Part shown: positions 426-39,642 of the stretch, piece after piece
Position numbering within the stretch: position 1 is the first letter of the stretch
Layout: every line of letters starts with the position of its first letter
Assembly: GCA_038998335.1 (NCBI GenBank)
Contig: JAVZHQ010000001.1
Coordinates: 256,001-320,000, forward strand
Direction: 5' to 3'
Length of the DNA stretch: 64,000 nt
From: Candidatus Aenigmatarchaeota archaeon
GTDB taxonomy: Archaea > Aenigmatarchaeota > Aenigmatarchaeia > CG10238-14 > SCSR01
The notes under the pieces: model-generated
What the model saw: the letters and a program-made list of their open reading frames with translations, nothing else
What the model was told of the DNA's origin: nothing
Databases searched by the model: none
Made by a program: the position numbers and the translations under genes

Positions 426-446
426 TTTTAATAACTCAATCAAGGC

Positions 447-1370
447 TCAACTTTCTAACCTTAAACTTAAAATGTATCCGCTACCGTCGCAAACTCTTGT
501 GTTAAATTCTGGGCAAGTTCTACAACTGCCAAAGCCAAGCTTATATTTATCAGCCAAGGTTCTTATTTTCTTCGTTATGTTATATCTGTATTCTGGCGAA
601 GCATAATAGTATATGTATCTTCTATCTGGTTTGGTGAAGTATAGGCTTGCAATTTTATCTTTTATTTCTGGTAAAGCTTTTTCTATTCTTTCTTTATATC
701 TCCAAACAATTCTCAATGTCCCAGAGGTAATCATTCTAACTCCAGCTTCTTTCACTTGCTTTATTAGTTCTTCCAATTCTTTTTCATCATCATTTAAATA
801 AGGAACGATAGGGTCTATCCAGACAGTGGTGAGAAATTTTTTTGAAAGTTCTTTTAAAACTTCTAATCTTTTTTGTGGCGAAGGGGCGTAGGGCTCGATT
901 TTTCTTGCTTTTTCTTTATCTAAAGTTGTTACGGTGACAGAAGCGATAAAATATTTTGATTTTTCTAAAACATCCAAATCTCTTAACATTAAACCAGGAT
1001 TTTTTGTTTGGACATTTATGGGAAAATTGTTCTTAACAAGGATTTTTAAAATCTCTCTTGTTATTTGGTACTTTTCCTCTTCATAAGTATACGGGTCTAC
1101 AATAGAAGAAAGGTAAACCAAACGTTTTGGTCTGTTTTTAACTTCCTTTTTAAGTGCTTCAACCAAACCTTCCCTAGGGATCGCAACTTCTTTTTGTATA
1201 CCTCGAGATAAGTCTTGGTATTTTTTTGATTTTTTATGAAAATCGGAGAAATATCTTCCATAACAATAAACACAACCTATAGAACATCCGATGTAGGGGT
1301 TGATCGTATACTTAGGAGGACACGTACAAAGCAATTTTTGAGACGATTTGAAATCTCTTAATACTTGCAT
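447..1370 (-). CDS. Radical SAM protein, SPL-like family
   Basis: INPYIGCSIGCVYCY (CxxxCxxC), DPY, TK, EPYAPSPQKRL. Confidence 0.85.
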   Translation of the reverse strand: MQVLRDFKSSQKLLCTCPPKYTINPYIGCSIGCVYCYGRYFSDFHKKSKKYQDLSRGIQKEVAIPREGLVEALKKEVKNRPKRLVYLSSIVDPYTYEEEKYQITREILKILVKNNFPINVQTKNPGLMLRDLDVLEKSKYFIASVTVTTLDKEKARKIEPYAPSPQKRLEVLKELSKKFLTTVWIDPIVPYLNDDEKELEELIKQVKEAGVRMITSGTLRIVWRYKERIEKALPEIKDKIASLYFTKPDRRYIYYYASPEYRYNITKKIRTLADKYKLGFGSCRTCPEFNTRVCDGSGYILSLRLES

Positions 1371-1381
1371 TATACCACAAG

Positions 1382-1966
1382 CTAATCTTTTAAGTAGTTC
1401 AAGTTAAGGAGGTATTCTCCTTTTTCCTTTATAAGATAGCCAAGCTTACTTAATGAAAACAAGCGTCTCAATATAGTAGATTTCCTATAGGTTCCTTTTA
1501 ACGGTGAAGGTATTTTTTGTATGAGTAATTCTGGTGTAATCTTTCCTTCTTCTGCAGCAACTTCCATTATCTTATACACTAGGTCGCAGTTAAAGTGTAA
1601 GGTGTGCGTTGGATACCTCTCAAGAAATTCTTTGAGTTTCTTTGAATGTTTAGCTACAAACTCATCCTTAGGTAGATCAAGCTTTTTTGAAATAATTTCG
1701 GCTGTATCATCAGGTATTGAGAGAAATTTATCGCAAGGAAGGTGTGGTTTGGTAATAAAAGGAAGGGAAGGAACAATGAAGCCTGCTTCAGTCAACTTCT
1801 TGCTCAAATATTTTAGCTCCTTTTCAGCTTCTCTTCTTTCCTTCTTTTTTTCTCTTAGCTGATTTTCTAGTGTATTTATTTCATTTTCAAGGATTTTATA
1901 AGCTTCTATTTTTTCTACAGCCTCGTCTATAAGCTTTTTGTATTCTTTCAATTTTTCAAGACTCAT
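1382..1966 (-). CDS. Hypothetical protein, N-terminal coiled coil plus C-terminal winged-helix-like region (paralog A1)
   Basis: N-terminus MSLEKLKEYKKLIDEAVE...LSKKLTEAGF shared with 4386..5099 and 7234..8049; C-terminal RRLFSLSKLGYLIKEKGEYLL looks like a wHTH wing. Confidence 0.65.
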   Translation of the reverse strand: MSLEKLKEYKKLIDEAVEKIEAYKILENEINTLENQLREKKKERREAEKELKYLSKKLTEAGFIVPSLPFITKPHLPCDKFLSIPDDTAEIISKKLDLPKDEFVAKHSKKLKEFLERYPTHTLHFNCDLVYKIMEVAAEEGKITPELLIQKIPSPLKGTYRKSTILRRLFSLSKLGYLIKEKGEYLLNLNYLKD

Positions 1967-2034
1967 AATATCTATGAAATTAATCGAACAATTAAGGATT
2001 TAAATTTAATTTTTATAGAACTTTTAGGACTGTC

Positions 2035-4332
2035 ATGGCAGGGAAAAAAGAAAAATTCGAGAAATTAGTAGAGCTCTTGTTGGCAAACCCTAAAATCAAG
2101 TACCATGAAATACCTACAAACCTCCATTGGACTCTCCGAAAATCTTTTGGTGGAATTAACAACGCAAAAAGAGCTCTGAGGTTAGACGCTTACATCTCAA
2201 AAACTTATAGTTCAAAACTTCCAACCCCAGAGGAGGTAGATAAAAATTTTGCTGAACTAACAGAGAAGCTAGGAAGGCATCCTACTTATGAGGAGTTTTA
2301 CGAACATTTTCCTTCTTCCTATTACGTGATTAGAAAAGGCTTATATCCTAACGTTAAAAGTTGGAAAGAATACATTAGAAGTAAGGGTTACGAACCTTAT
2401 GATAATAGAGGGGTGATTTCTGACGAGCAGATAATTGAGCTTATAGAAAGAGGATTGAGTGATGCTGAAATTGCAAGAAAATTAGGAAGAATCACAAGAA
2501 AAGGTGTTGCCTACAGAAGAAAAAAATTAGGATACCCTCCTTTTTCAAGGAAAAAATTTACTGACGAACAATTGGAAGAGGCTATAAAGAAAAGTGGAAG
2601 TTATTCTGCAGCTGCAAGGCTTCTAGGAGTAAACTCTAGTAGTTTAGCTGAAAGAGCAAAGAAAAAAGGTATAGAATCGCCTTATATCAAAAGAGTTCAT
2701 CCAATTAAAAAATTTTTAAAGGAACAAGGCCCTTCTTTAGGTTCTGAAATCATTGCTGCGGTTGGAAACTTTAACGTGGGAAGATGGGTCTTATACGAAG
2801 GTAAAGACGTATGCTCGTTTCGCATACCAGGATATAAAAGCAAATTATATTTTCTAAAAGGACAAGAAGAGGAAGCAAAAAAGAAGAAAATTTTTTATAT
2901 AAACAAAAAAATTGAACCTCTTTTAGAGTTTATTAAAGCTAACCCAGACTGTACACGTACAAGAATAAGAAAAGAGGGGTTTGACAGTATTATTCGTTCA
3001 TGCTTTGATGACTCTCTGGATAAGGCAAAGATAATTCAAAGGTGTATCCAGTTAGGCAGGAGGGATTTAGCCAATCAACTATTACAACAAATTAAAAACT
3101 TAGACCTGAAAGATATGGAAACGTTAGTTTCTTTGTACCAAAATGAAGCGCAAAACCAAGAAGAGGATGTAAAAATTGAATATATAGACGTTTTAAGAGA
3201 GCCTAGCACTGCAAGAATCTATACAGAATCTACAGAAACAGAAATTGGAGACATTTTACCAAAAAAGCATTTTAAAGGAAGAAGGGTTATAGTAAAAGGT
3301 TTGAAACAAGCTGAAATGCCTAAAGAAATACCAATTTTATTAAGACTGGAGAGAGCGAAGAATACAATAGATTCGTACTTTATTCATAAAAAAGAATTGG
3401 AAGGAAAGGAAGAATACCTAAGAGAAGGCTATAGAATAACAAGAGCTTATCAAAGTAGTTATAGATTATTACAAAACTTGTTGAATTTGGAAGAATTAGA
3501 AGGGAAAACAGTTTTAGACTTAGGATGCGGCTCAAATTCTCCTTTAATGCAAGTCTTAAAAGACAAAAAAATTAACGCCAATGTTGTTGGGTTAGACAGC
3601 CACAAAAAATCTTTACAGATTTGTAAAGAAAAATTTTCTGAGAATGAATTTATTCAGGGTTTATATCCCTACACTCTTTTCAGCTTCAGAAGCAACAGTT
3701 TTGATTGGATTTTTGCGATAAATTGTTTGCATTACACAAATGAAAAATCTGAAATTTGTGCAACATTAATTGGTTTAGATCAGTTACTGAAGAAAGGTGG
3801 AAGAATTGTAATAATCGAACCAAGGTCTCAATCTAAGATGAAATTCAATGCTGAATTGAAGAAAAACCTTAGTGAGATGGGTTATAATGTAGAAGAGTAT
3901 AATAAATATATAAAGTGGCCAGGACCACAATACTCTCATCATCTAATTCTGGTAGGCGAAAAAATAAATGAGGTAGATAGGAGTCAGGAGTATAAAAAGG
4001 CTATTGCAGCAAGTTTGATTAAAACAAACAGGTTTGAGGAAGCTAAGAAGATTGTTGAAGATTTGGGATTAACGCTAAGTGACATAATTAAGGAGAAAGA
4101 GAAAGAAATGGTATGCATCAGAAAGCCAGAAATAAGAAAAGTTTACAAAGAACCTAAGAGAGTTTTCAGTTTTGAAGAAAACCTTAAACTATATTCTCTG
4201 ATAAAAATGGTTAAAACTACAAAGATATATTCGAGAGATTTAGCAGAAAAAATGTTTGATAAGATTTTCAATTATTATTTTCAAAAAACCGAAAAATTAA
4301 AAAAATTTCGTCCTTACGTTGGTTCAAGGTAA
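2035..4332 (+). CDS. Multi-HTH / homing-endonuclease-associated-repeat protein fused to a class I SAM methyltransferase (paralog B1)
   Basis: ELTEKLGRHPTYEEF...KSWKEYI repeat-like unit; HTHs GLSDAEIARKLG and GSYSAAARLLGV; MTase motif I VLDLGCG, FDWIFAINCLHY, LLKKGGRIVI. Confidence 0.75.
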   Translation: MAGKKEKFEKLVELLLANPKIKYHEIPTNLHWTLRKSFGGINNAKRALRLDAYISKTYSSKLPTPEEVDKNFAELTEKLGRHPTYEEFYEHFPSSYYVIRKGLYPNVKSWKEYIRSKGYEPYDNRGVISDEQIIELIERGLSDAEIARKLGRITRKGVAYRRKKLGYPPFSRKKFTDEQLEEAIKKSGSYSAAARLLGVNSSSLAERAKKKGIESPYIKRVHPIKKFLKEQGPSLGSEIIAAVGNFNVGRWVLYEGKDVCSFRIPGYKSKLYFLKGQEEEAKKKKIFYINKKIEPLLEFIKANPDCTRTRIRKEGFDSIIRSCFDDSLDKAKIIQRCIQLGRRDLANQLLQQIKNLDLKDMETLVSLYQNEAQNQEEDVKIEYIDVLREPSTARIYTESTETEIGDILPKKHFKGRRVIVKGLKQAEMPKEIPILLRLERAKNTIDSYFIHKKELEGKEEYLREGYRITRAYQSSYRLLQNLLNLEELEGKTVLDLGCGSNSPLMQVLKDKKINANVVGLDSHKKSLQICKEKFSENEFIQGLYPYTLFSFRSNSFDWIFAINCLHYTNEKSEICATLIGLDQLLKKGGRIVIIEPRSQSKMKFNAELKKNLSEMGYNVEEYNKYIKWPGPQYSHHLILVGEKINEVDRSQEYKKAIAASLIKTNRFEEAKKIVEDLGLTLSDIIKEKEKEMVCIRKPEIRKVYKEPKRVFSFEENLKLYSLIKMVKTTKIYSRDLAEKMFDKIFNYYFQKTEKLKKFRPYVGSR

Positions 4333-4385
4333 AACTTTTTGGTAAAGCTTAAATTTTTTACTATTTTTAATAAGTTAAGATAAAC

Positions 4386-5099
4386 ATGGCTCTCGAAAAA
4401 TTAATAGAATACAAAAAAATGTTGGATCGAGCTATCGAACTTATCGAAACCTATCCTAAGCTTCAAGCAGAGGTGGAAAGTTTAAAAAAACAATTGAAAG
4501 AGAAAAAGAAAGCAAAGAAAGAAATAGAATTAGAACTTAAAGATTTGAACAAAAAGTTGGCAGAAGCAGGCTTTTCTGTTAAAATAGAAGAAATTATGAA
4601 GGAACCTGTTACACTTACACCTCCCAAAACAGTTGGAATACTTCAAACAATTACCAAAACAATTCTTGATTATAAAGCTGGAGAAATATTTCGTCGCAAA
4701 GACGTTTATGAAAAATTCCCACCAGAAATAAAAGAAAAATATCCTGACTACTTGAAAGTTGAAGGAAATATCGGAAAAATACTTAACAACTTAATCAAGA
4801 AAGGTGAGGTTATAAAAATTAGGTTTGGAACTTATAAAAGAGTTGGTAAGACAGAAGAAGTTGATAATCCAAGCCATTATTCAGAACCTATAAATAAAGC
4901 ATATAGTGTTATACTGACATATGAACCTGGTAAAAGGTTTACTTATAGAGATATCAGGGAAAAATTGTTACAGGATAGGGAGGTGCGTGAGTATAGAAAG
5001 GGTTTGTCTTTAAGAATAATTCAAGCACTTCAGTTAGCTGTTGATAGCGGAAAAGTTAGGAGAATTGGAAGAGACGTTTACGAGAGGTTATCTAACTAA
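4386..5099 (+). CDS. Hypothetical protein, coiled coil plus two winged-helix-like repeats (paralog A2)
   Basis: MALEKLIEYKKMLDRAIE...LNKKLAEAGF; internal repeats ILDYKAGEIFRRKDV...GEVIKIRFGTYKR and ILTYEPGKRFTYRDI...GKVRRIGRDVYER. Confidence 0.7.
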   Translation: MALEKLIEYKKMLDRAIELIETYPKLQAEVESLKKQLKEKKKAKKEIELELKDLNKKLAEAGFSVKIEEIMKEPVTLTPPKTVGILQTITKTILDYKAGEIFRRKDVYEKFPPEIKEKYPDYLKVEGNIGKILNNLIKKGEVIKIRFGTYKRVGKTEEVDNPSHYSEPINKAYSVILTYEPGKRFTYRDIREKLLQDREVREYRKGLSLRIIQALQLAVDSGKVRRIGRDVYERLSN

Positions 5100-5114
5100 T
5101 TGTTTAGAGTTAAA

Positions 5115-6995
5115 CTAATCTATTCGTAACCTAGGTAAGCTTTTTATATATTCTCTCAATTTTTGTTCATACTTTTCTTTTGCTTCTACATACTCCTTCT
5201 GTGCTTCCTCATAGATTTTTTGTGCTGAAAGACCTAAAAGTCTTGCCAGATTTCCTAAAGAGACAATTATTGTATCTGTAGGCCAACCTAAAAATCCATC
5301 TCTCCTTCTTATTTTCTCTTGTAAATCTAACATGATTTTGTGGGTTTTTTTCCATGAGATATAATGATTTGCAGCAAGATTTTTTACTTCGTTCATAGAA
5401 ATCATCCAAGGATATTTTCCTTCTTCTCTATATTCAAATAAGTCCATTATAAAATCTTTACATCTCTGATCTTCAGGATATGTTTGAAGCCATTTTTTAA
5501 GTTTTGCTAGCAATTTCTTATGAGTTCTTACAAAAATTTTGGGTGGTTTGAACTTTGGTATTCTTATTTTCTTCTCAACATCTATACCTTCTAATTCTTC
5601 TATTTTTTTGAAATAATCTTTTAAAGTATGGTTATAATTTTCCGCGATTTCATACGCACGAAGCAAATACATGGTTTTTTCCTCAGCATCACTTCTGTTT
5701 TTTGCAGCTTTAAGATAACTCATTCCAACCCCTTTTACATAAGAGTTAGTCTTATCAGTTTGAAGTGTTTTTTCAGCTATTAACAGATAAAAATAGGAAG
5801 GTTTCAAACCAACCCAATCAACTTTTAGCCTTTTCTCATGAAGGTTGTAGCTTAGACTTTCTAAATATTGTTTGGTTTCTAAATGACTTACTTTTTGAGA
5901 TCTTGGATGAACTATGAAAAATTTTCCCCCTTTTTTAAGGAGCTGGTGTAGACCAGCTAAAGTAGCATATTTCTCGATTCTGTTGTTAAAATGCATAGAA
6001 CATACAGCAAAAATGTAATCAAATGCATTATCAACAAAAGGAAGGGTATAAGGAAAATTTGCTTGTAAGTAGTTTTGTTTAGGAAATGTTTCCTTACTAA
6101 GCTTGAGGAATTTTTGGCAATCGTCCAAACCAATTACTTCAGCTTTTATGCCCTTTTTCTCAATTACATCTATCAAGGGAGACTTACATCCACAACCCAA
6201 ATCCAAGATTGTTTTTTCGTTCAATTCTTCCGGATTTATATAAGTCTCGAACAAATCAAGAAGAAGTTTATATTCTGACATAATTGGCTTTGAATTTACT
6301 ATAATTTCTGCTACTCTTATATCGATATTTTTTGCTTTATCATGAAATTCCAAACTATCTCTCACTTTTTTCATCCATCCAACTACTTTCATAATTTCTG
6401 CAGGACCTATAGAAACTTCACCAGCTTTTAGTGGTCTTAAAACATAAGATTTTGCCCTTCTTCTTCCAACTTCTCTCCACGCTTCAACTTCTGCCTCCAT
6501 GTCTTTTGTATAAGTGTAGTGTTTACGGAATATTCTATTAAAGCCTCTTTTTAACCTCTTTCTTTCATTTCTCTCAGGAATTTTTTCGATAAGTTTATAG
6601 AAGTCAAAAATCATTTCGAGACCGTGAGCAGAAGGAAATCTAGGAATTTCTTGGTGTAAATAATTTGCTATTAAATCTCGAATTGGTTTAGCTATGTAGA
6701 TAACAACCTCTTCTGGAACTTTTTCTGTTTTTGGAAATAGCACGTTTGTTATATCGTCAAGAGTAGAAAATTTTAAGTATCGAAAAATAAGCTCAGAAAT
6801 AAGAGTTTCTTGGTCTTCTTTCAGGTTTGACAAGTTAAGAACTTTCTTGCTATATCCCCTTACAATAGAAGGAAGATTACTCCTTAAAACTGCATATATT
6901 TCTCTAACTTTTTCCTCGTCTCTGATTAAATGCTCTATCTCATCTTTATAGATTTTCATTATCGTTTTGGGAAGACTTTTCAATTCTTTTCGCAT
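5115..6995 (-). CDS. Large protein with central class I SAM methyltransferase domain (paralog B2)
   Basis: EELNEKTILDLGCGCKSPL, FDYIFAVCSMHF, ATLAGLHQLLKKGG, PRSQ, all closely matching B1. Confidence 0.75.
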   Translation of the reverse strand: MRKELKSLPKTIMKIYKDEIEHLIRDEEKVREIYAVLRSNLPSIVRGYSKKVLNLSNLKEDQETLISELIFRYLKFSTLDDITNVLFPKTEKVPEEVVIYIAKPIRDLIANYLHQEIPRFPSAHGLEMIFDFYKLIEKIPERNERKRLKRGFNRIFRKHYTYTKDMEAEVEAWREVGRRRAKSYVLRPLKAGEVSIGPAEIMKVVGWMKKVRDSLEFHDKAKNIDIRVAEIIVNSKPIMSEYKLLLDLFETYINPEELNEKTILDLGCGCKSPLIDVIEKKGIKAEVIGLDDCQKFLKLSKETFPKQNYLQANFPYTLPFVDNAFDYIFAVCSMHFNNRIEKYATLAGLHQLLKKGGKFFIVHPRSQKVSHLETKQYLESLSYNLHEKRLKVDWVGLKPSYFYLLIAEKTLQTDKTNSYVKGVGMSYLKAAKNRSDAEEKTMYLLRAYEIAENYNHTLKDYFKKIEELEGIDVEKKIRIPKFKPPKIFVRTHKKLLAKLKKWLQTYPEDQRCKDFIMDLFEYREEGKYPWMISMNEVKNLAANHYISWKKTHKIMLDLQEKIRRRDGFLGWPTDTIIVSLGNLARLLGLSAQKIYEEAQKEYVEAKEKYEQKLREYIKSLPRLRID

Positions 6996-7027
6996 GATCT
7001 CGAATAGTTATCGAATAATTAAAACTT

Positions 7028-7261
7028 TTAAGATTTACTGTAAAGAGAGCCTAAGATATCATTCAATTTTTTCAACGCAAAAACAAGGTTTCTATTTAAG
7101 GAAAACTTGGATAAAACTTCATCGTCACATTTTAACAAAAAATCAAGTAGTTGAGTTACGGGAATTTCGTACTTTCTTAATATCTCAGTAATACTATATT
7201 TTTTAAGCTCTTCCTCTAAGTTTAGTTTAGGCTTTATGTTACTGGCAAAAAATAGCTCTCC
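7028..7261 (-). other. 77-codon open frame with no start codon near its 5' end, overlapping the end of A3 in the -1 frame (probable C-terminal continuation)
   Basis: Reads ELFFASNIKPKLNLEEELKKYSITEILRKYEIPVTQLLDFLLK...SKS*; fills the gap to the next gene; T6 run at 7247-7252. Confidence 0.5.
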
Positions 7262-8049
7262 CTAAATACATAAAATGTTTGAGAATCAGAAACTTCTGTT
7301 TGAATTTTACCCTCTTCTACTAAATCAACAAGTACTAAAAGACCACAACTTCTTAACATTTTTCTGCTCAACTTGTATGTTCGCGAAAAATCTAAAAGGC
7401 GTGATGCTAAATCCTTGTATTGGAATTTTTTGAGCTCTCTTGCATGAAATTCTATACTTTCTTTTAACTTTTTCATAAGTTCAATTTTTTTATCATCACT
7501 GAGCCATTCCGCTTTTTCCAAAAAGTCAGGAACATAAGGAAGCTTTTCACCTTTTGGAGAATAAATAGGATAATTATACACATACTCTTTTCCTGGTTTT
7601 GGTGTTTTTAATTTTATGTAACGGATATGTCTCTTATCATACAATCCTTCACTAACAGCTTTTTCAAGAAAACTTGATACTAGATTGCGTGTTTTGAGTG
7701 TATACGGTAAATTCAATTTTTTAATAATCGATTTTGGTGTGACACTTCTTCCTTCTCTTACTCTTTCTCCTGTTTTTGGGTCTAAACCCATTATTTCACT
7801 AGAAACTTCTATAACTCTTTCGTAAGTCAGTTCTTCTGGTTTAATGATTTTTGGTGCGATTTTTTCAAAAGTTATAGAAGGTAACGAAGAGACAGAAATA
7901 GAAAACCCAAACTTAAAAAGTTTCTTGTTTAACTCTTGGATTTCTTCCACGTTCTTTTCCAATTCTTTTTTGAGTTTTTCAAGTTTTTCAACTTTTTCTA
8001 CAGCTTCAGAAATTAAGTCTCTTTGTTCCTTCAATTTTTCTATCGACAT
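7234..8049 (-). CDS. Hypothetical coiled-coil protein (paralog A3); start reassigned to ATG 8049; may continue by -1 frameshift to 7028
   Basis: MSIEKLKEQRDLISEAVEK...LNKKLFKFGFS aligns with the A1/A2 N-termini. Confidence 0.65.
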   Translation of the reverse strand: MSIEKLKEQRDLISEAVEKVEKLEKLKKELEKNVEEIQELNKKLFKFGFSISVSSLPSITFEKIAPKIIKPEELTYERVIEVSSEIMGLDPKTGERVREGRSVTPKSIIKKLNLPYTLKTRNLVSSFLEKAVSEGLYDKRHIRYIKLKTPKPGKEYVYNYPIYSPKGEKLPYVPDFLEKAEWLSDDKKIELMKKLKESIEFHARELKKFQYKDLASRLLDFSRTYKLSRKMLRSCGLLVLVDLVEEGKIQTEVSDSQTFYVFRESYFLPVT

Positions 8050-8295
8050 TTTTACCCATAATTTATTAAGCAGTAAAAAATTTAAGATTATACCCACAAA
8101 AGTAACAAAGTTATAAGAAAAAAATTGTTTCCAAAAAAGAATACGAACAATGGTTAGGAAAACCTGGTGCAATGATAATCAAAGCACAAAAAGTTTTTGA
8201 AGCAAGCGGTGAGTAAAATTGCTTGGTAGAGGTAGTGTAACAATAAGAATCATGAAAAAGCATGTTACTAAATTGCTGGAATAAGGGAATATAAA

Positions 8296-9372
8296 CTAAA
8301 ATGGTCTTTGTTCCCTTCTCAAAGAAAACAAGCTAGCAAGATTCCCAACTTTTGTTAACAAATCATAATAAAATAGTTCTAAATCTTTTTCTGTAAGCTT
8401 CGCTCTTTGGTCTGCTTCTATAAGAACAGAAGGCATTCCATAGTTTGCATGTCCACTCAAAGCAAGCAAAACAGAAGAAATAAAATTTGCAGTTTTTACA
8501 CAATCTTTTTCTCCTAGAAAATCAACTCTAATTGGTCTATCAAACTCAGCAGTTTTTAGATAGAATGAAAATATTGAATTTGAAAATTCACCAAACTCTT
8601 TTAGAATAGGATGCTTTTCTGGTTCAGAAGAATAGTTGAAAACACAAGTTCTTTCGTTTAGTTTTAAAGCATAAGTTAAAAGATTGGAGTCTTTTGAGTT
8701 TTCAAGCAAAGGTTTAAACTCTATCAGTTCAGGATTAAGATTAGCTTTTTCCTTTATTATCTCACAAAATCTTGTTCCTCTTGAGTCCTCTATTACTCCA
8801 GCCAAAACGCAATTTTTTTCTCTAGCTTTTGAAAAGAGGTTTAAATAAGATTGAATCAAGTTTTCGTAAGTTGGAAAAAGTATCGAATCCTTTGCTGGTT
8901 TTTCTGTGTAATGAGGAATTATTGAACCATCTAGAAAAATTATGTCAGGTTTAAAATTTTCTATAACTTCAGAAGCTGTAGAAGTTTCAATTATTTGTCT
9001 TTCATAGTTTGAGTTCATCTCAAGCTCTATCTCATGTAAAGGTTCAAAAACTATTTTTGGGATAGGTGTTGGTAAAGCTTCAGGATAATATTCAACTTTT
9101 TCAAGCTTTCCTTTTGAGTAAAAGAATATAACTCCAATTGCTCTCAACAATATCAAATCCATGCCATGTAAAGAACGTTTTACTATTCCTCCATCTACAC
9201 CAGCAATTTTTAAGCTTTCTAGGTTTGATTTTTCAACCTTAAAAATAGTTTTTTCCTCTATTCCAGAAGAAATAGAAATTTTTCTTAGAACTTCAGCAAG
9301 CCTTATTCTTTCTGATTCCATTTTTTCGATTTTCTTAGCAAGCTCTTCCGTTATCTTGAACAAATCTTCCAT
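8296..9372 (-). CDS. nurA: NurA nuclease
   Basis: IAGVDGG, IFLDGSI, GVIEDS, YGMPSVLIEADQRAK. Confidence 0.9.
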   Translation of the reverse strand: MEDLFKITEELAKKIEKMESERIRLAEVLRKISISSGIEEKTIFKVEKSNLESLKIAGVDGGIVKRSLHGMDLILLRAIGVIFFYSKGKLEKVEYYPEALPTPIPKIVFEPLHEIELEMNSNYERQIIETSTASEVIENFKPDIIFLDGSIIPHYTEKPAKDSILFPTYENLIQSYLNLFSKAREKNCVLAGVIEDSRGTRFCEIIKEKANLNPELIEFKPLLENSKDSNLLTYALKLNERTCVFNYSSEPEKHPILKEFGEFSNSIFSFYLKTAEFDRPIRVDFLGEKDCVKTANFISSVLLALSGHANYGMPSVLIEADQRAKLTEKDLELFYYDLLTKVGNLASLFSLRREQRPF

Positions 9373-9435
9373 CCATTTTTATTTGGAATCAGAAGTAATA
9401 AAAAGTTTTTTAACTTACAAGAAGGAAAAAAGATT

Positions 9436-10188
9436 ATGGTAGATTTCAAAAAATTTAATACTTTCATTTTTGATTTAGATGGAACTGTTTGGAACTGGGT
9501 AAGTTTGCTCCCAGGAGTAAAAGAAATTATTCAAAAATTAAAAAAAGAAGGAAAGCAAGTTCTTTTTGTCTCAAATAATAGTATGCTTTGTAGGAAGAAA
9601 ATGGCAGAAAAACTGAGAAGCTTTGGGATAGAGCTTAAAGAAAATGATTTAATAACTTCAAGTTTTGTTGCTGCAAATTACTTAAAAATTAAAGATGCTA
9701 CTGCATTTCCTATAGGAGAAGGAGTAAAAGAAGAGTTGGAAGAAAATGGTGTAAAAATTGATGAAAATAAACCAGAATATTTGGTTGTTGGCCAAGACTT
9801 AAGCTTTAACTATGAGAAACTGATGAAAGCTTACGAAATAGTAAAAAATGGAGCAAAGATATTAGCCACAGCAAGAGGAAAGGTTTATTTTGAAGGAGAA
9901 AAGTTGATGCCAGCTACAGGAGTTTGGGTTAGCGCTATAGAATACATAACAGATAAAAAAGCGAAGCTTATAGGCAAACCTTCTAACGAAATGTTAGAAA
10001 CTATTCAGCTTTTTGTTTGTTCTCCAAGAAAAGAAACTGTTTTGATTGGTGATGAATGTGATTCAGATATAATGGCAGGAAAGATTCTTGGTTACTATAC
10101 TGTTTTGGTTAAAACAGGAATAGATAAAGAGGCAAAGAAAGTTAAACCAGACTTGATAATAGATTCTTTAGAAGAAATAAAGATTTAA
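9436..10188 (+). CDS. HAD-IIA (NagD-like) phosphatase
   Basis: FDLDGT, VSNN, IGKPS, IGDECDSDI. Confidence 0.9.
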   Translation: MVDFKKFNTFIFDLDGTVWNWVSLLPGVKEIIQKLKKEGKQVLFVSNNSMLCRKKMAEKLRSFGIELKENDLITSSFVAANYLKIKDATAFPIGEGVKEELEENGVKIDENKPEYLVVGQDLSFNYEKLMKAYEIVKNGAKILATARGKVYFEGEKLMPATGVWVSAIEYITDKKAKLIGKPSNEMLETIQLFVCSPRKETVLIGDECDSDIMAGKILGYYTVLVKTGIDKEAKKVKPDLIIDSLEEIKI

Positions 10189-39567: not shown

Positions 39568-39642
39568 TGCGCCAGCCGGGATTTGAACCCGGGTTACGAG
39601 CTTGGAAGGCTCGTGTCTTAGACCAGGCTGGACCACTGGCGC
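39568..39642 (-). tRNA. tRNA-Gly(TCC)
   Basis: Acceptor GCGCCAG/CTGGCGC with A73; CGAGC-CT-TCC-AA-GCTCG; GGTTCAAATCC. Confidence 0.95.

Follow-up and report, generated by a model that had tools for sequence, protein, structure and literature searches.

A lineage-restricted accessory cassette of predicted DNA-associated proteins in a hot-spring Aenigmatarchaeota archaeon

Do three small, related proteins and two large methyltransferase paralogs, whose genes alternate in a 64,000-nucleotide stretch of a Candidatus Aenigmatarchaeota genome (hereafter the window, to which all coordinates refer), form a single system, and on what would such a system act? A sequence-only reading of the locus had proposed a modular, diversifying system in which a coiled coil shared by the small proteins (A1, A2 and A3) docks the methyltransferases (B1 and B2) and variable DNA-binding ends choose their targets. 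The five ORFs were borne out by our ORF check at the positions and on the strands given below.

A1 (1382-1966, minus strand; 194 aa) combines an N-terminal amphipathic helix of ~62 aa with a unique C-terminal half, and A2 (4386-5099, plus strand; 237 aa) combines an N-terminal helix with two winged-helix-like repeats. A3 (7234-8049, minus strand; 271 aa from its ATG, with a longer TTG frame that reaches 8172) comprises a helix (residues 3-46), a linker, a predicted winged helix (residues 72-168), a conserved Y-x-P-K-G-x-x-L-P motif and a second helical or winged-helix-like domain. The common N-terminus that had been claimed for this family stood up to analysis: the first 65 residues of A1 and A2 are 58% identical (compositionally adjusted E 8e-11), and past the N-terminus the two proteins have no likeness. 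The pairwise likeness of A3 to A1 and A2 is weak (E 0.003 and 0.095). When a profile of the A1 and A2 N-termini was searched against the 2619 ORFs of at least 50 aa in the genome, A3 was the top non-self match (E 5e-5, 20.8 bits), with the runner-up at an E of only 0.22. Because A3 ranks first among 2619 ORFs, the family likeness exceeds coiled-coil composition, and by this profile A3 is a weaker but genuine member. Heptad periodicity is clear in A2 (reached by 12 of 5000 shuffles), moderate in A1 (148 of 5000) and not significant in A3 (820 of 5000); the N-terminal helix is probably a dimerising coiled coil.

The suggestion that the C-termini of the A proteins are winged-helix-like found structural backing in A3 but yielded leads only in A2. 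Residues 72-168 of A3 were modelled with an AF2 pLDDT of 82-93 and superpose on winged-helix regulators (IdeR/MarR/Fur-type, AbiEi_4 and SSV1 F-112). In VIA-align, nearly all of the top rows were winged helices (Z 6-7.6, compared with the tool's level of 8; rmsd 2-3 A), and Foldseek gave none at E<=1e-3. The A proteins differ from these regulators in having no sequence-level membership. For A2, the leads are AbiEi_4 at 17.6 bits, under the cutoff of 25, and Atlas structural neighbours among AbiEi_4, HARE-HTH, GntR and DUF6088. An AbiE toxin-antitoxin was rejected, since no island protein has the nucleotidyltransferase domain of an AbiEii partner. A1 has no family match above cutoff in Pfam, NCBIfam or PHROG and no relatives in 371 genomes of the phylum except copies of A2. 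A2 is without relatives among 1.84 billion representative proteins, an exhaustive search returning A2 fragments and A1 and nothing else. The layout of A3, a long N-terminal helix followed by tandem winged helices and the Y-x-P-K-G-x-x-L-P motif, matches no Pfam, NCBIfam or PHROG family.

B1 (2035-4332, plus strand; 765 aa) carries an HNH_repeat/HTH-like N-terminal array (aa ~36-215), a class I methyltransferase core with its helical extension (aa ~441-700) and a C-terminal tail, and B2 (5115-6995, minus strand; 626 aa) consists of an unassigned N-terminal 230 aa, the core (aa ~206-470) and a C-terminal region with an HTH-like stretch. As previously described, the two share a methyltransferase domain between unlike flanks: the class I SAM methyltransferase cores are 39% identical over 236 aa (E 1e-42), and the flanks have no significant likeness. 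Both proteins exceed the Pfam gathering scores for Methyltransf_11/25/31 (B1, Methyltransf_31, 51.1 bits, cutoff 27; B2, Methyltransf_11, 46.0 bits, cutoff 21.2), and with enzymes of this type they share an intact motif I LDLGCG (residue 494 in B1, residue 264 in B2) and an FD-type strand 4. They differ from such enzymes in that the core lies inside proteins of 626-1142 aa, has a family-specific helical extension, conserved to ~250 aligned columns in seven proteins (the B1 core aligns with six homologs), and is joined to predicted DNA-binding modules. Low identity separates them from the named methyltransferase families, all NCBIfam matches being far below cutoffs. Classed on motifs and profiles, the B core is a class I methyltransferase of the small-molecule, protein or RNA type. 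Its nearest solved relatives are 3mgg, 3ccf, phosphoethanolamine N-methyltransferases, juvenile-hormone acid methyltransferases, BamL and the cypemycin methyltransferase; that these are small-molecule or peptide methyltransferases weighs against a model in which B acts at DNA. The view that B is not of the DNA-methylase type was upheld. The motifs (D/N/S)PP(Y/F/W), PC and ENV are absent from both proteins, neither matches N6_Mtase or DNA_methylase in Pfam at E<=0.1, and the sole DNA-methylase-type match is that of B1 to a PHROG 'DNA methyltransferase' (17.4 bits). A canonical DNA base methyltransferase (N6-A/N4-C or C5) was rejected on the missing motifs and the lack of a Pfam match.

The N-terminal array of B1 scores 20.6 bits, below the cutoff of 26, with HNH_repeat (PF18780), a DNA-binding repeat associated with homing endonucleases. 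Its aa 36-153 align in BLAST with bona fide repeat proteins, namely the HNH_repeat region of a B-like protein from another genome of the phylum (G333-B, E 2e-12) and HNH_repeat proteins of a further genome, G094 (E 1e-5), and the Atlas structural neighbours of the array are HTH arrays. B1 also has weak PHROG matches to phage DNA-binding and regulator families. Unlike in homing endonucleases, there is no HNH nuclease domain, and the repeats are either fused to a methyltransferase or lie in a protein whose gene neighbours one; a literature search returned no description of a small-molecule- or protein-type methyltransferase fused to homing-endonuclease-style repeats. In B2, aa 223-550 align with aa 365-692 of the B-like protein of G094 (E 4e-22), and its single-sequence AF2 model (pLDDT 38) is unusable for fold reading.

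The five genes had been taken as the unit. They are real, but the unit proved to be larger, adding a radical SAM gene and HNH_repeat modules, which are fused in B1 and free-standing in G094. The radical SAM protein (447-1370, minus strand; 307 aa), of the SplB/PA0069/Rv2578c-like type, is encoded 11 nt downstream of A1, with which it is probably co-transcribed. It scores 55.8 bits with Pfam Radical_SAM (cutoff 29.5) and 35.1 bits with DUF1848, also above the cutoff. Its best NCBIfam matches are rSAM_PA0069 (139.1 bits, cutoff 360), rSAM_Rv2578c (123.5 bits, cutoff 430) and rSAM_mob_pairB, the last from Haft's 'radical SAM mobile pair'. With scores so far under the curated cutoffs, the protein was rejected as a PA0069 or Rv2578c equivalog, and its superfamily membership holds; it differs from these proteins also in being paired with an A protein. 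We take SplB/PA0069/Rv2578c radical SAM proteins to be COG1533, 'DNA repair photolyase'. The gene is the third copy in the genome, besides two core paralogs. Its best non-self match (207 bits) is the A-linked radical SAM protein of G094, with which it forms a branch of its own outside the taxonomy-following core paralog; their sister placement (support 94/91) is uncertain because the branches are long. No A protein was found beside other radical SAM paralogs at 19 other loci examined.

Together, A1, B1, A2, B2, A3 and the adjoining radical SAM gene occupy a strain-specific island of 7.7 kb (~430-8115), delimited by tblastx against same-genus genomes and flanked by ogg (3-425) and nurA (8296-9372). 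Two genomes of the genus are without the island at this site: in one (G005) the ogg-nurA gap is ~50 bp, and in the other (G001) the interval holds only a small methyltransferase of 205 aa. At the right edge of the island lies a 3'-end remnant of this small class I methyltransferase gene (8106-8216, plus strand), whose stop-to-stop frame matches the last ~25 residues of the intact G001 protein; a tblastx match spans 8075-8196. The insertion truncated this resident gene. In two independent hot-spring metagenomes, from two other studies, contigs run across both junctions, and in one run (X3) an island-less relative is ~8-fold deeper. No integrase, replication, capsid, structural or transfer genes were found among the six island proteins with Pfam and PHROG, no flanking direct repeat was found, and there is no tRNA target near the island, the sole tRNA of the window being at 39568; an integrative mobile element or provirus was rejected on these grounds. 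The composition of the island is indistinguishable from that of the genome, and the viral contigs searched hold no relative. Overall, the region is a genuine accessory cassette with a restricted lineage distribution, outside the conserved genome and gained by the lineage of this hot-spring strain; each of its proteins appears to be DNA-associated and to act either on DNA or at it.

Across the phylum, B-like genes occur in 7 and A3-type genes in 3 of 371 genomes, at insertion sites that differ between genomes and lie among housekeeping genes. G094, a distant Aenigmatarchaeota genome of the same class and a different family, carries the same gene set, likewise between housekeeping genes. The order there is an HNH_repeat x8 protein, a B-like methyltransferase (787 aa; 32% identical to B1 over 247 aa, E 3e-30), HNH_repeat x5 and x2 proteins, a divergent A3-like protein and a radical SAM protein. 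The three HNH_repeat neighbours score 137-541 bits, and the A3-like and radical SAM genes are 11 nt apart, the same spacing as that between A1 and its radical SAM gene in the window. A is linked to the radical SAM gene at least as tightly as to B. A3 has collinear relatives in two genomes, G094 (E 5e-8 in pairwise comparison) and G028 (E 1.6e-9 with a profile); the G028 gene has no recognisable B alongside, its contig ending 320 bp away. The A1/A2-type N-terminus is poorly kept in these relatives, which align with A2 at 16-20% identity, although the B core is conserved. The expected co-occurrence of A and B held in G094 but failed in four of the six lineages with a B-like gene (G024, G347, G333 and G053), where B has neither A-like nor radical SAM neighbours, so that A and B do in part occur independently. 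One of these proteins, G333-B, repeats the architecture of B1, HNH_repeat (52.3 bits) plus methyltransferase. Because G094 is the one independent second instance of the full set (n=1), the linkage of A, B and the radical SAM gene could come from shared ancestry of a single transferred block and not from a functional tie.

A 98.8% identical contig of 3.8 kb was assigned by binning to a MAG of another genus; between it and the window pN/pS is 0.10-0.20, revealing purifying selection over ~1% divergence. Both A2 and B2 are frameshifted in L027 as well as in contigs from runs X2 and X3, and sibling populations must therefore be able to do without these two genes or be in the course of losing them. 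The active diversification envisaged earlier left no sign: these two genes are frameshifted in siblings, and no DNA repeats were found between the paralogs.

We tentatively favor, with somewhat less than even confidence, a working model in which the cassette proteins act at DNA. The B enzymes would be tethered to DNA via their own modules, the N-terminal HNH_repeat/HTH array in B1 and the C-terminal HTH-like stretch in B2, and would methylate a target other than the canonical N6-A, N4-C or C5 base positions; a protein bound to DNA and a nucleic-acid position of a non-canonical kind are the most plausible candidates. For the radical SAM enzyme, the target would be the substrate of B or DNA. The A proteins would be dimeric winged-helix DNA binders with a regulatory or adaptor role specific to the cassette, each enzyme gene having one of them next to it, and may contact B or the radical SAM enzyme; that A and B work together is plausible. 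In a bolder form, which we consider unlikely, the HNH_repeat proteins and the SplB-like radical SAM enzyme would join A and B in an undescribed DNA-directed modification system of DPANN archaea: sequence-reading repeat arrays, along with dimeric winged-helix adaptors, would guide the radical SAM enzyme and a non-canonical methyltransferase to chosen DNA sites, where a chromatin-protein or unusual nucleic-acid mark is written, and the cassette would move between lineages as a unit.

The genes may instead form no joint system: the island would be what is left of an integrated virus or plasmid in decay, or a loose collection of selfish genes, with A as ordinary small regulators and the G094 co-occurrence due to transfer of one block. 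HTH or winged-helix proteins and stand-alone methyltransferases are typical cargo, and the sporadic distribution (B in 7/371 and A3 type in 3/371 genomes), the differing sites among housekeeping genes, the frameshifts in A2 and B2, the weak PHROG matches of B1, the four lineages with B and no A, and the near-identical contig in another genus all fit. We nevertheless regard this as somewhat unlikely, given an island with genome-like composition and without integrase, replication, capsid or transfer genes, tRNA target, flanking repeat or viral relatives, the low pN/pS, and the recurrence of four component types and the A-radical SAM spacing in a distant family. The docking of an A coiled coil on the B core, with variable winged-helix ends directing methylation to different DNA sites, would explain why conservation between paralogs is confined to the N-terminus of A and the core of B, why B1-A2 and A3-B2 adjoin on one strand each, and why G094 has both. 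This strict form we find improbable: the A1/A2-type N-terminus is not conserved in the G094 and G028 relatives although the B core is, four lineages have B without A, and A lies 11 nt from the radical SAM gene in both genomes, its position relative to B not being fixed. Further, B bears its own predicted DNA-binding modules, and therefore would not need A for targeting.

A defense or counter-defense module, akin to restriction-modification or MADS, would use methylation to mark self and the radical SAM enzyme or DNA binders to sense or attack foreign DNA; its accessory, strain-variable location, the AbiEi-like hint in A2 and PADLOC matches to the MADS component mad2 (B1, 46.5 bits, E 5.6e-13; B2, 28.7 bits) point this way. 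The mad2 match spans just positions 274-442 of the 492 in the profile, where the methyltransferase is generic, and the PADLOC scan of the five A and B proteins gave no other MADS component and no other family at E below ~2e-4, weaker matches falling in coiled-coil or winged-helix stretches; MADS was rejected on these grounds. With nuclease, ATPase and toxin domains absent (Pfam) and the methyltransferase lacking DNA-base methylase motifs, defense has little likelihood; the earlier statement that no described system fits agrees with our finding no known defense or restriction-modification family among those tested (Pfam, PADLOC and motifs). Least of all do we expect a small-molecule or RiPP-like tailoring cluster, in which the winged-helix domains would recognize the leader of a peptide that the radical SAM enzyme and the methyltransferases modify. 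In its favor, the cassette contains a radical SAM enzyme, and two peptide methyltransferases, BamL and the cypemycin N-terminal methyltransferase, are among the solved structures closest to the B core, but the radical SAM enzyme is of the SplB/PA0069 and not the SPASM type, the B proteins bear HNH_repeat/HTH DNA-binding arrays, and no small ORF resembling a precursor, nor a transporter, came up in an unsystematic look.

In the very small genomes of DPANN archaea, a strain-specific cassette of 7.7 kb is a large investment. If the B enzymes act at DNA on proteins or unusual positions, as in the working model, the cassette would represent a new kind of locus-directed marking in archaea, and its sequence-reading modules would be of possible practical use. 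If the genes are selfish cargo, the cassette still documents the entry and decay of accessory genes in reduced symbiont genomes.

The island lies between ogg (3–425) and nurA (8296–9372). As the sequence-only reading had described, all five open reading frames were present: three paralogs with an N-terminal helix and a winged-helix-like part, A1 (1382–1966, minus strand), A2 (4386–5099, plus strand), and A3 (7234–8049, minus strand), and two methyltransferase paralogs, B1 (2035–4332, plus strand) and B2 (5115–6995, minus strand). The island extends beyond these genes to include a SplB/PA0069/Rv2578c-like radical SAM gene (447–1370, minus strand), whose start lies 11 nt beyond the A1 stop codon. 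About 50 bp lie between ogg and nurA in G005, a genome of the same genus. G001, also of this genus and with a 94% identical NurA, has just one gene there, for a small class I methyltransferase of 205 aa. This gene is intact in G001, and its final ∼25 codons survive in the window at 8106–8216 (plus strand). The near adjacency of ogg and nurA in these relatives, together with the 3′ remnant, shows that ∼7.7 kb (roughly 430–8115) was inserted in this lineage and that the 5′ part of the resident gene was lost. No integrase, tRNA target, or flanking repeats were detected in the island. A foreign composition was rejected, as the island is indistinguishable from the genome (tetranucleotide distance of 0.145 compared with a window mean of 0.142; GC content of 0.321 compared with 0.332). 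Invertible, shufflon-like switching between the inverted paralogs was likewise discarded: no DNA repeat is longer than about 30 nt, and the 5′ ends of A1 and A2 are only 68.6% identical over 185 nt.

Two further hot-spring metagenomes, runs X2 and X3 of two separate studies, contain the island at about 99% identity, on contigs that span both of its junctions (188–2629 and 7040–8407). In X3, the flanks were also recovered from an island-less relative that is ∼5% diverged, about 8-fold deeper, and dominates this spring. Because the junctions are bridged in other metagenomes and an island-less relative exists in X3, the island is no assembly artefact and is polymorphic in nature. The X3 contig depth at 1–257 and 8378–9500 was 50–57 for the relative, compared with ∼7 for the island-bearing strain. 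Further, a 3790-bp contig of another Aenigmatarchaeota MAG was 98.8% identical to 3247–7037. This contig (L027) appears to be C11 of G150 (73% complete, 3% contamination, assigned to another genus), and its sequence would reflect either mis-binning or a recent transfer between genera. Simple counts of pN/pS between the window and this contig gave 0.20 for B1 (partial), 0.10 for A2, and 0.15 for B2, based on 13, 7, and 21 changed codons, respectively. In the same contig and in those from X2 and X3, A2 lacks 1 nt at 4887 and a T-run of B2 has gained a T at 5674; therefore, A2 and B2 are truncated in those populations, and the window genome has the intact forms. The two genes were under constraint until recently, yet are dispensable. 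In the roughly 3% read of each of two metatranscriptome runs from the study of X3, 0 reads matched, a share too small to count against expression.

The kinship of the A proteins was borne out. In A1 and A2, the first 65 residues are 58% identical (compositionally adjusted E 8e-11); beyond them, in keeping with the claim of dissimilar C-termini, no likeness was found. The pairwise likeness of A3 to A1 and A2 is weak, and therefore a profile of the A1 and A2 N-termini was built and searched against the 2619 ORFs of at least 50 aa in the 1.0-Mb genome. Leaving aside the two sequences on which the profile was trained, A3 ranked first (E 5e-5), ahead of an ORF at E 0.22. In a K/E-rich genome with many natural coiled-coil decoys, this ranking shows A3 to be, as judged by profile likeness, a genuine, diverged member of the A family. 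The proposed coiled coil held in part: heptad periodicity is clear in A2, moderate in A1, and not significant in A3. No match of A1, A2, or A3 reached a curated Pfam or NCBIfam cutoff; those to PHROGs and PADLOC were weak and fell within coiled-coil or winged-helix stretches.

An AF2 model of A3 from a three-sequence alignment (mean pLDDT 62) predicted a long helix (residues 3–46) joined by a disordered linker to a domain in which three helices and a beta hairpin were placed with confidence (residues 71–170, pLDDT 82–93), followed by a less confident C-terminal helical domain. Compared with 48,161 chains by VIA-align, residues 72–168 superposed on winged-helix domains at Z 6–7.6, which is middling by the tool's own standard, and an rmsd of 2–3 Å; the matches included IdeR, the Scc1 C-terminal WHD, Z-alpha, SSV1 F-112, and Fur/MarR types. 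Foldseek gave no match for A3 at E<=1e-3, and its weak rows were likewise winged helices. The suggestion that the A C-termini are winged helix-like gains tentative support for A3, and for A2 there are leads only (AbiEi_4 below cutoff and Atlas neighbours with AbiEi_4, HARE-HTH, GntR, and DUF6088). The 238-bp gap between A3 and B2 is occupied by a 77-codon stop-to-stop frame (7028–7261, minus strand) that is helix-turn-helix-like by eye, has no ATG, GTG, or TTG near its start, and overlaps the A3 stop in another frame. The frame may be what is left of a gene, may extend A3 through a frameshift, or may itself be a small gene that begins at an unusual codon.

B1 and B2 do share a close methyltransferase domain (236 residues with 39% identity, E 1e-42); outside it, no significant likeness was seen between the flanks, which had been described as unrelated. 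Both proteins score above the Pfam gathering scores for Methyltransf_11/25/31 and contain motif I (LDLGCG). DPPY-type and PC motifs are absent, as had been noted, and so is the ENV motif of DNA base methylases; among solved structures, small-molecule and peptide methyltransferases come closest. The N-terminal 460 residues of B1 gave sub-threshold HNH_repeat and HTH matches and HTH-array structural neighbours in the Atlas, and BLAST of this region against bona fide HNH_repeat proteins gave E 2e-12 and E 1e-5. The AF2 model of B2, from a single sequence without an alignment, had a pLDDT of 38, too low for the B2 flanks to be assigned from it. The idea that the resident small methyltransferase gave rise to the B core was rejected, since the G001 protein is only 27% identical to the B1 core.

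Database searches indicate that the A and B families are very rare. With A2 as query, 5.8 billion proteins yielded a single cluster (a fragment 99% identical to it), and 1.84 billion representatives, searched exhaustively with HMMER, yielded just A1 and two pieces of A2 itself. For B2 and the B1 N-terminus, only ∼99% identical fragments were found. In 371 phylum genomes, a B-core profile exceeded 90 bits in G000, G150, G094, G024, G347, G333, and G053, with generic methyltransferases at 57 bits or less, and an A3-type profile picked out three (G000, G094, and G028). For A1, nothing convincing emerged from the phylum genomes besides A2 copies (weak matches of at most 18.7 bits in 4 genomes). 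The weak A2 matches in 9 relatives (E of at least 8.6e-4, at most 17.3 bits, ORFs of 129–146 aa) were set aside as unconvincing. Non-self A3 matches came from G101, G015, and G322; that in G101, a membrane-protein frame by eye, was rejected. Beyond the near-identical contig and G094, scans of viral, genome, and metagenome contigs for further B relatives turned up nothing but generic methyltransferases. The B-family gene of G053 encodes a 1142-aa methyltransferase on the opposite strand inside an apparent ribosomal protein cluster (by eye; L105 9156–12584, contig C9). In G333 (L104 1302–4467) and G347 (L103 3524–5377), the B-family gene adjoins a Pop5-like (RNase P subunit) gene, again by eye; this lies downstream of B in G333, where B itself comes immediately after a short ORF matching Pur_DNA_glyco (methylpurine glycosylase; Pfam E 7.8e-16).

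A similar gene set was found in G094, of the same class and a different family, flanked by deoxyhypusine synthase and aIF5B-like genes. It consists of an HNH_repeat x8 protein (gene 1), a 787-aa B homolog (gene 2; 32% identical to B1 across 247 aa at E 3e-30, in an alignment that runs through the helical extension specific to the family), two more HNH_repeat proteins, x5 and x2 (genes 3 and 4), a 261-aa A3-like protein in divergent orientation (gene 5; E 5e-8 to A3, collinear over the whole length), and, 11 nt downstream of the latter, a radical SAM protein that is the best non-self match of that of the island (gene 6; 207 bits). Thus, all four component types recur together once, with the same A-to-radical SAM spacing. 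The congener G093 gave no B, A3-type, or radical SAM match and has a different gene beside aIF5B. Two same-strand HNH_repeat ORFs of 142 and 300 aa, 18 nt apart at 8382–9731 of L071 (G094 contig C3), may represent a single gene interrupted by a stop codon. The island radical SAM gene is the third copy in its genome; the other two are 41% and 38% identical, and one of them is a core copy following taxonomy. In a 22-sequence tree, the island and G094 radical SAM proteins were sisters (94/91) outside the core clade, on long branches. The literature available to us in part yielded nothing on the function of this type.

The sequence-only reading had the A proteins docking on the B methyltransferase and targeting it. 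A and B do occur together in G094, and B occurs in G024, G347, G333, and G053 with no A-like or island-type radical SAM gene within about 6 kb. Also arguing against tight coupling, an A-like gene was present at 1 of the 21 radical SAM loci examined, that of G094 (18 of the 30 loci from the radical SAM search plus three more; L063–L070 were left out); the A3-like gene of G028 ends an apparent ribosomal protein operon (by eye); and the N-terminus typical of A1 and A2 is not preserved in the A3-like proteins of G094 and G028. The docking model is, in our estimate, unlikely. The G028 gene faces a repeat-containing ORF, cut by the contig end, that resembles neither B1 nor any Pfam family. In the same genome, a 735-aa ORF with no Pfam match (L117 7091–9298, contig C109) lies between L22- and S3-like genes (by eye), another large orphan gene within a conserved operon of the phylum.

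A decayed mobile element whose cargo genes have nothing to do with one another seems a doubtful explanation, if less so than docking. A defence module is improbable. Consistent with the earlier claim, no described system fits the island by Pfam, PADLOC, or motif search: the match to MADS (PADLOC mad2) is limited to the generic methyltransferase part, the AbiE toxin partner is absent, and the methyltransferases lack restriction-modification motifs. A peptide or small-molecule tailoring cluster, which the solved relatives of B1 and B2 might bring to mind, is very improbable. In such literature on Aenigmarchaeota methyltransferase islands and the HNH_repeat family as was partly accessible, the architecture was not found described.

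We tentatively favour a module in which DNA-tethered B methyltransferases would modify a DNA-bound protein or a non-canonical nucleic-acid position, the A proteins would be dimeric winged-helix regulators or adaptors, and the radical SAM protein would be an additional enzyme of the A/B module. Overall, the results firmly indicate an accessory cassette that is restricted in lineage and encodes apparently DNA-associated proteins: winged-helix-like proteins with a common N-terminal helix, class I methyltransferases of non-DNA type joined to putative DNA-binding modules, and a SplB-like radical SAM protein.
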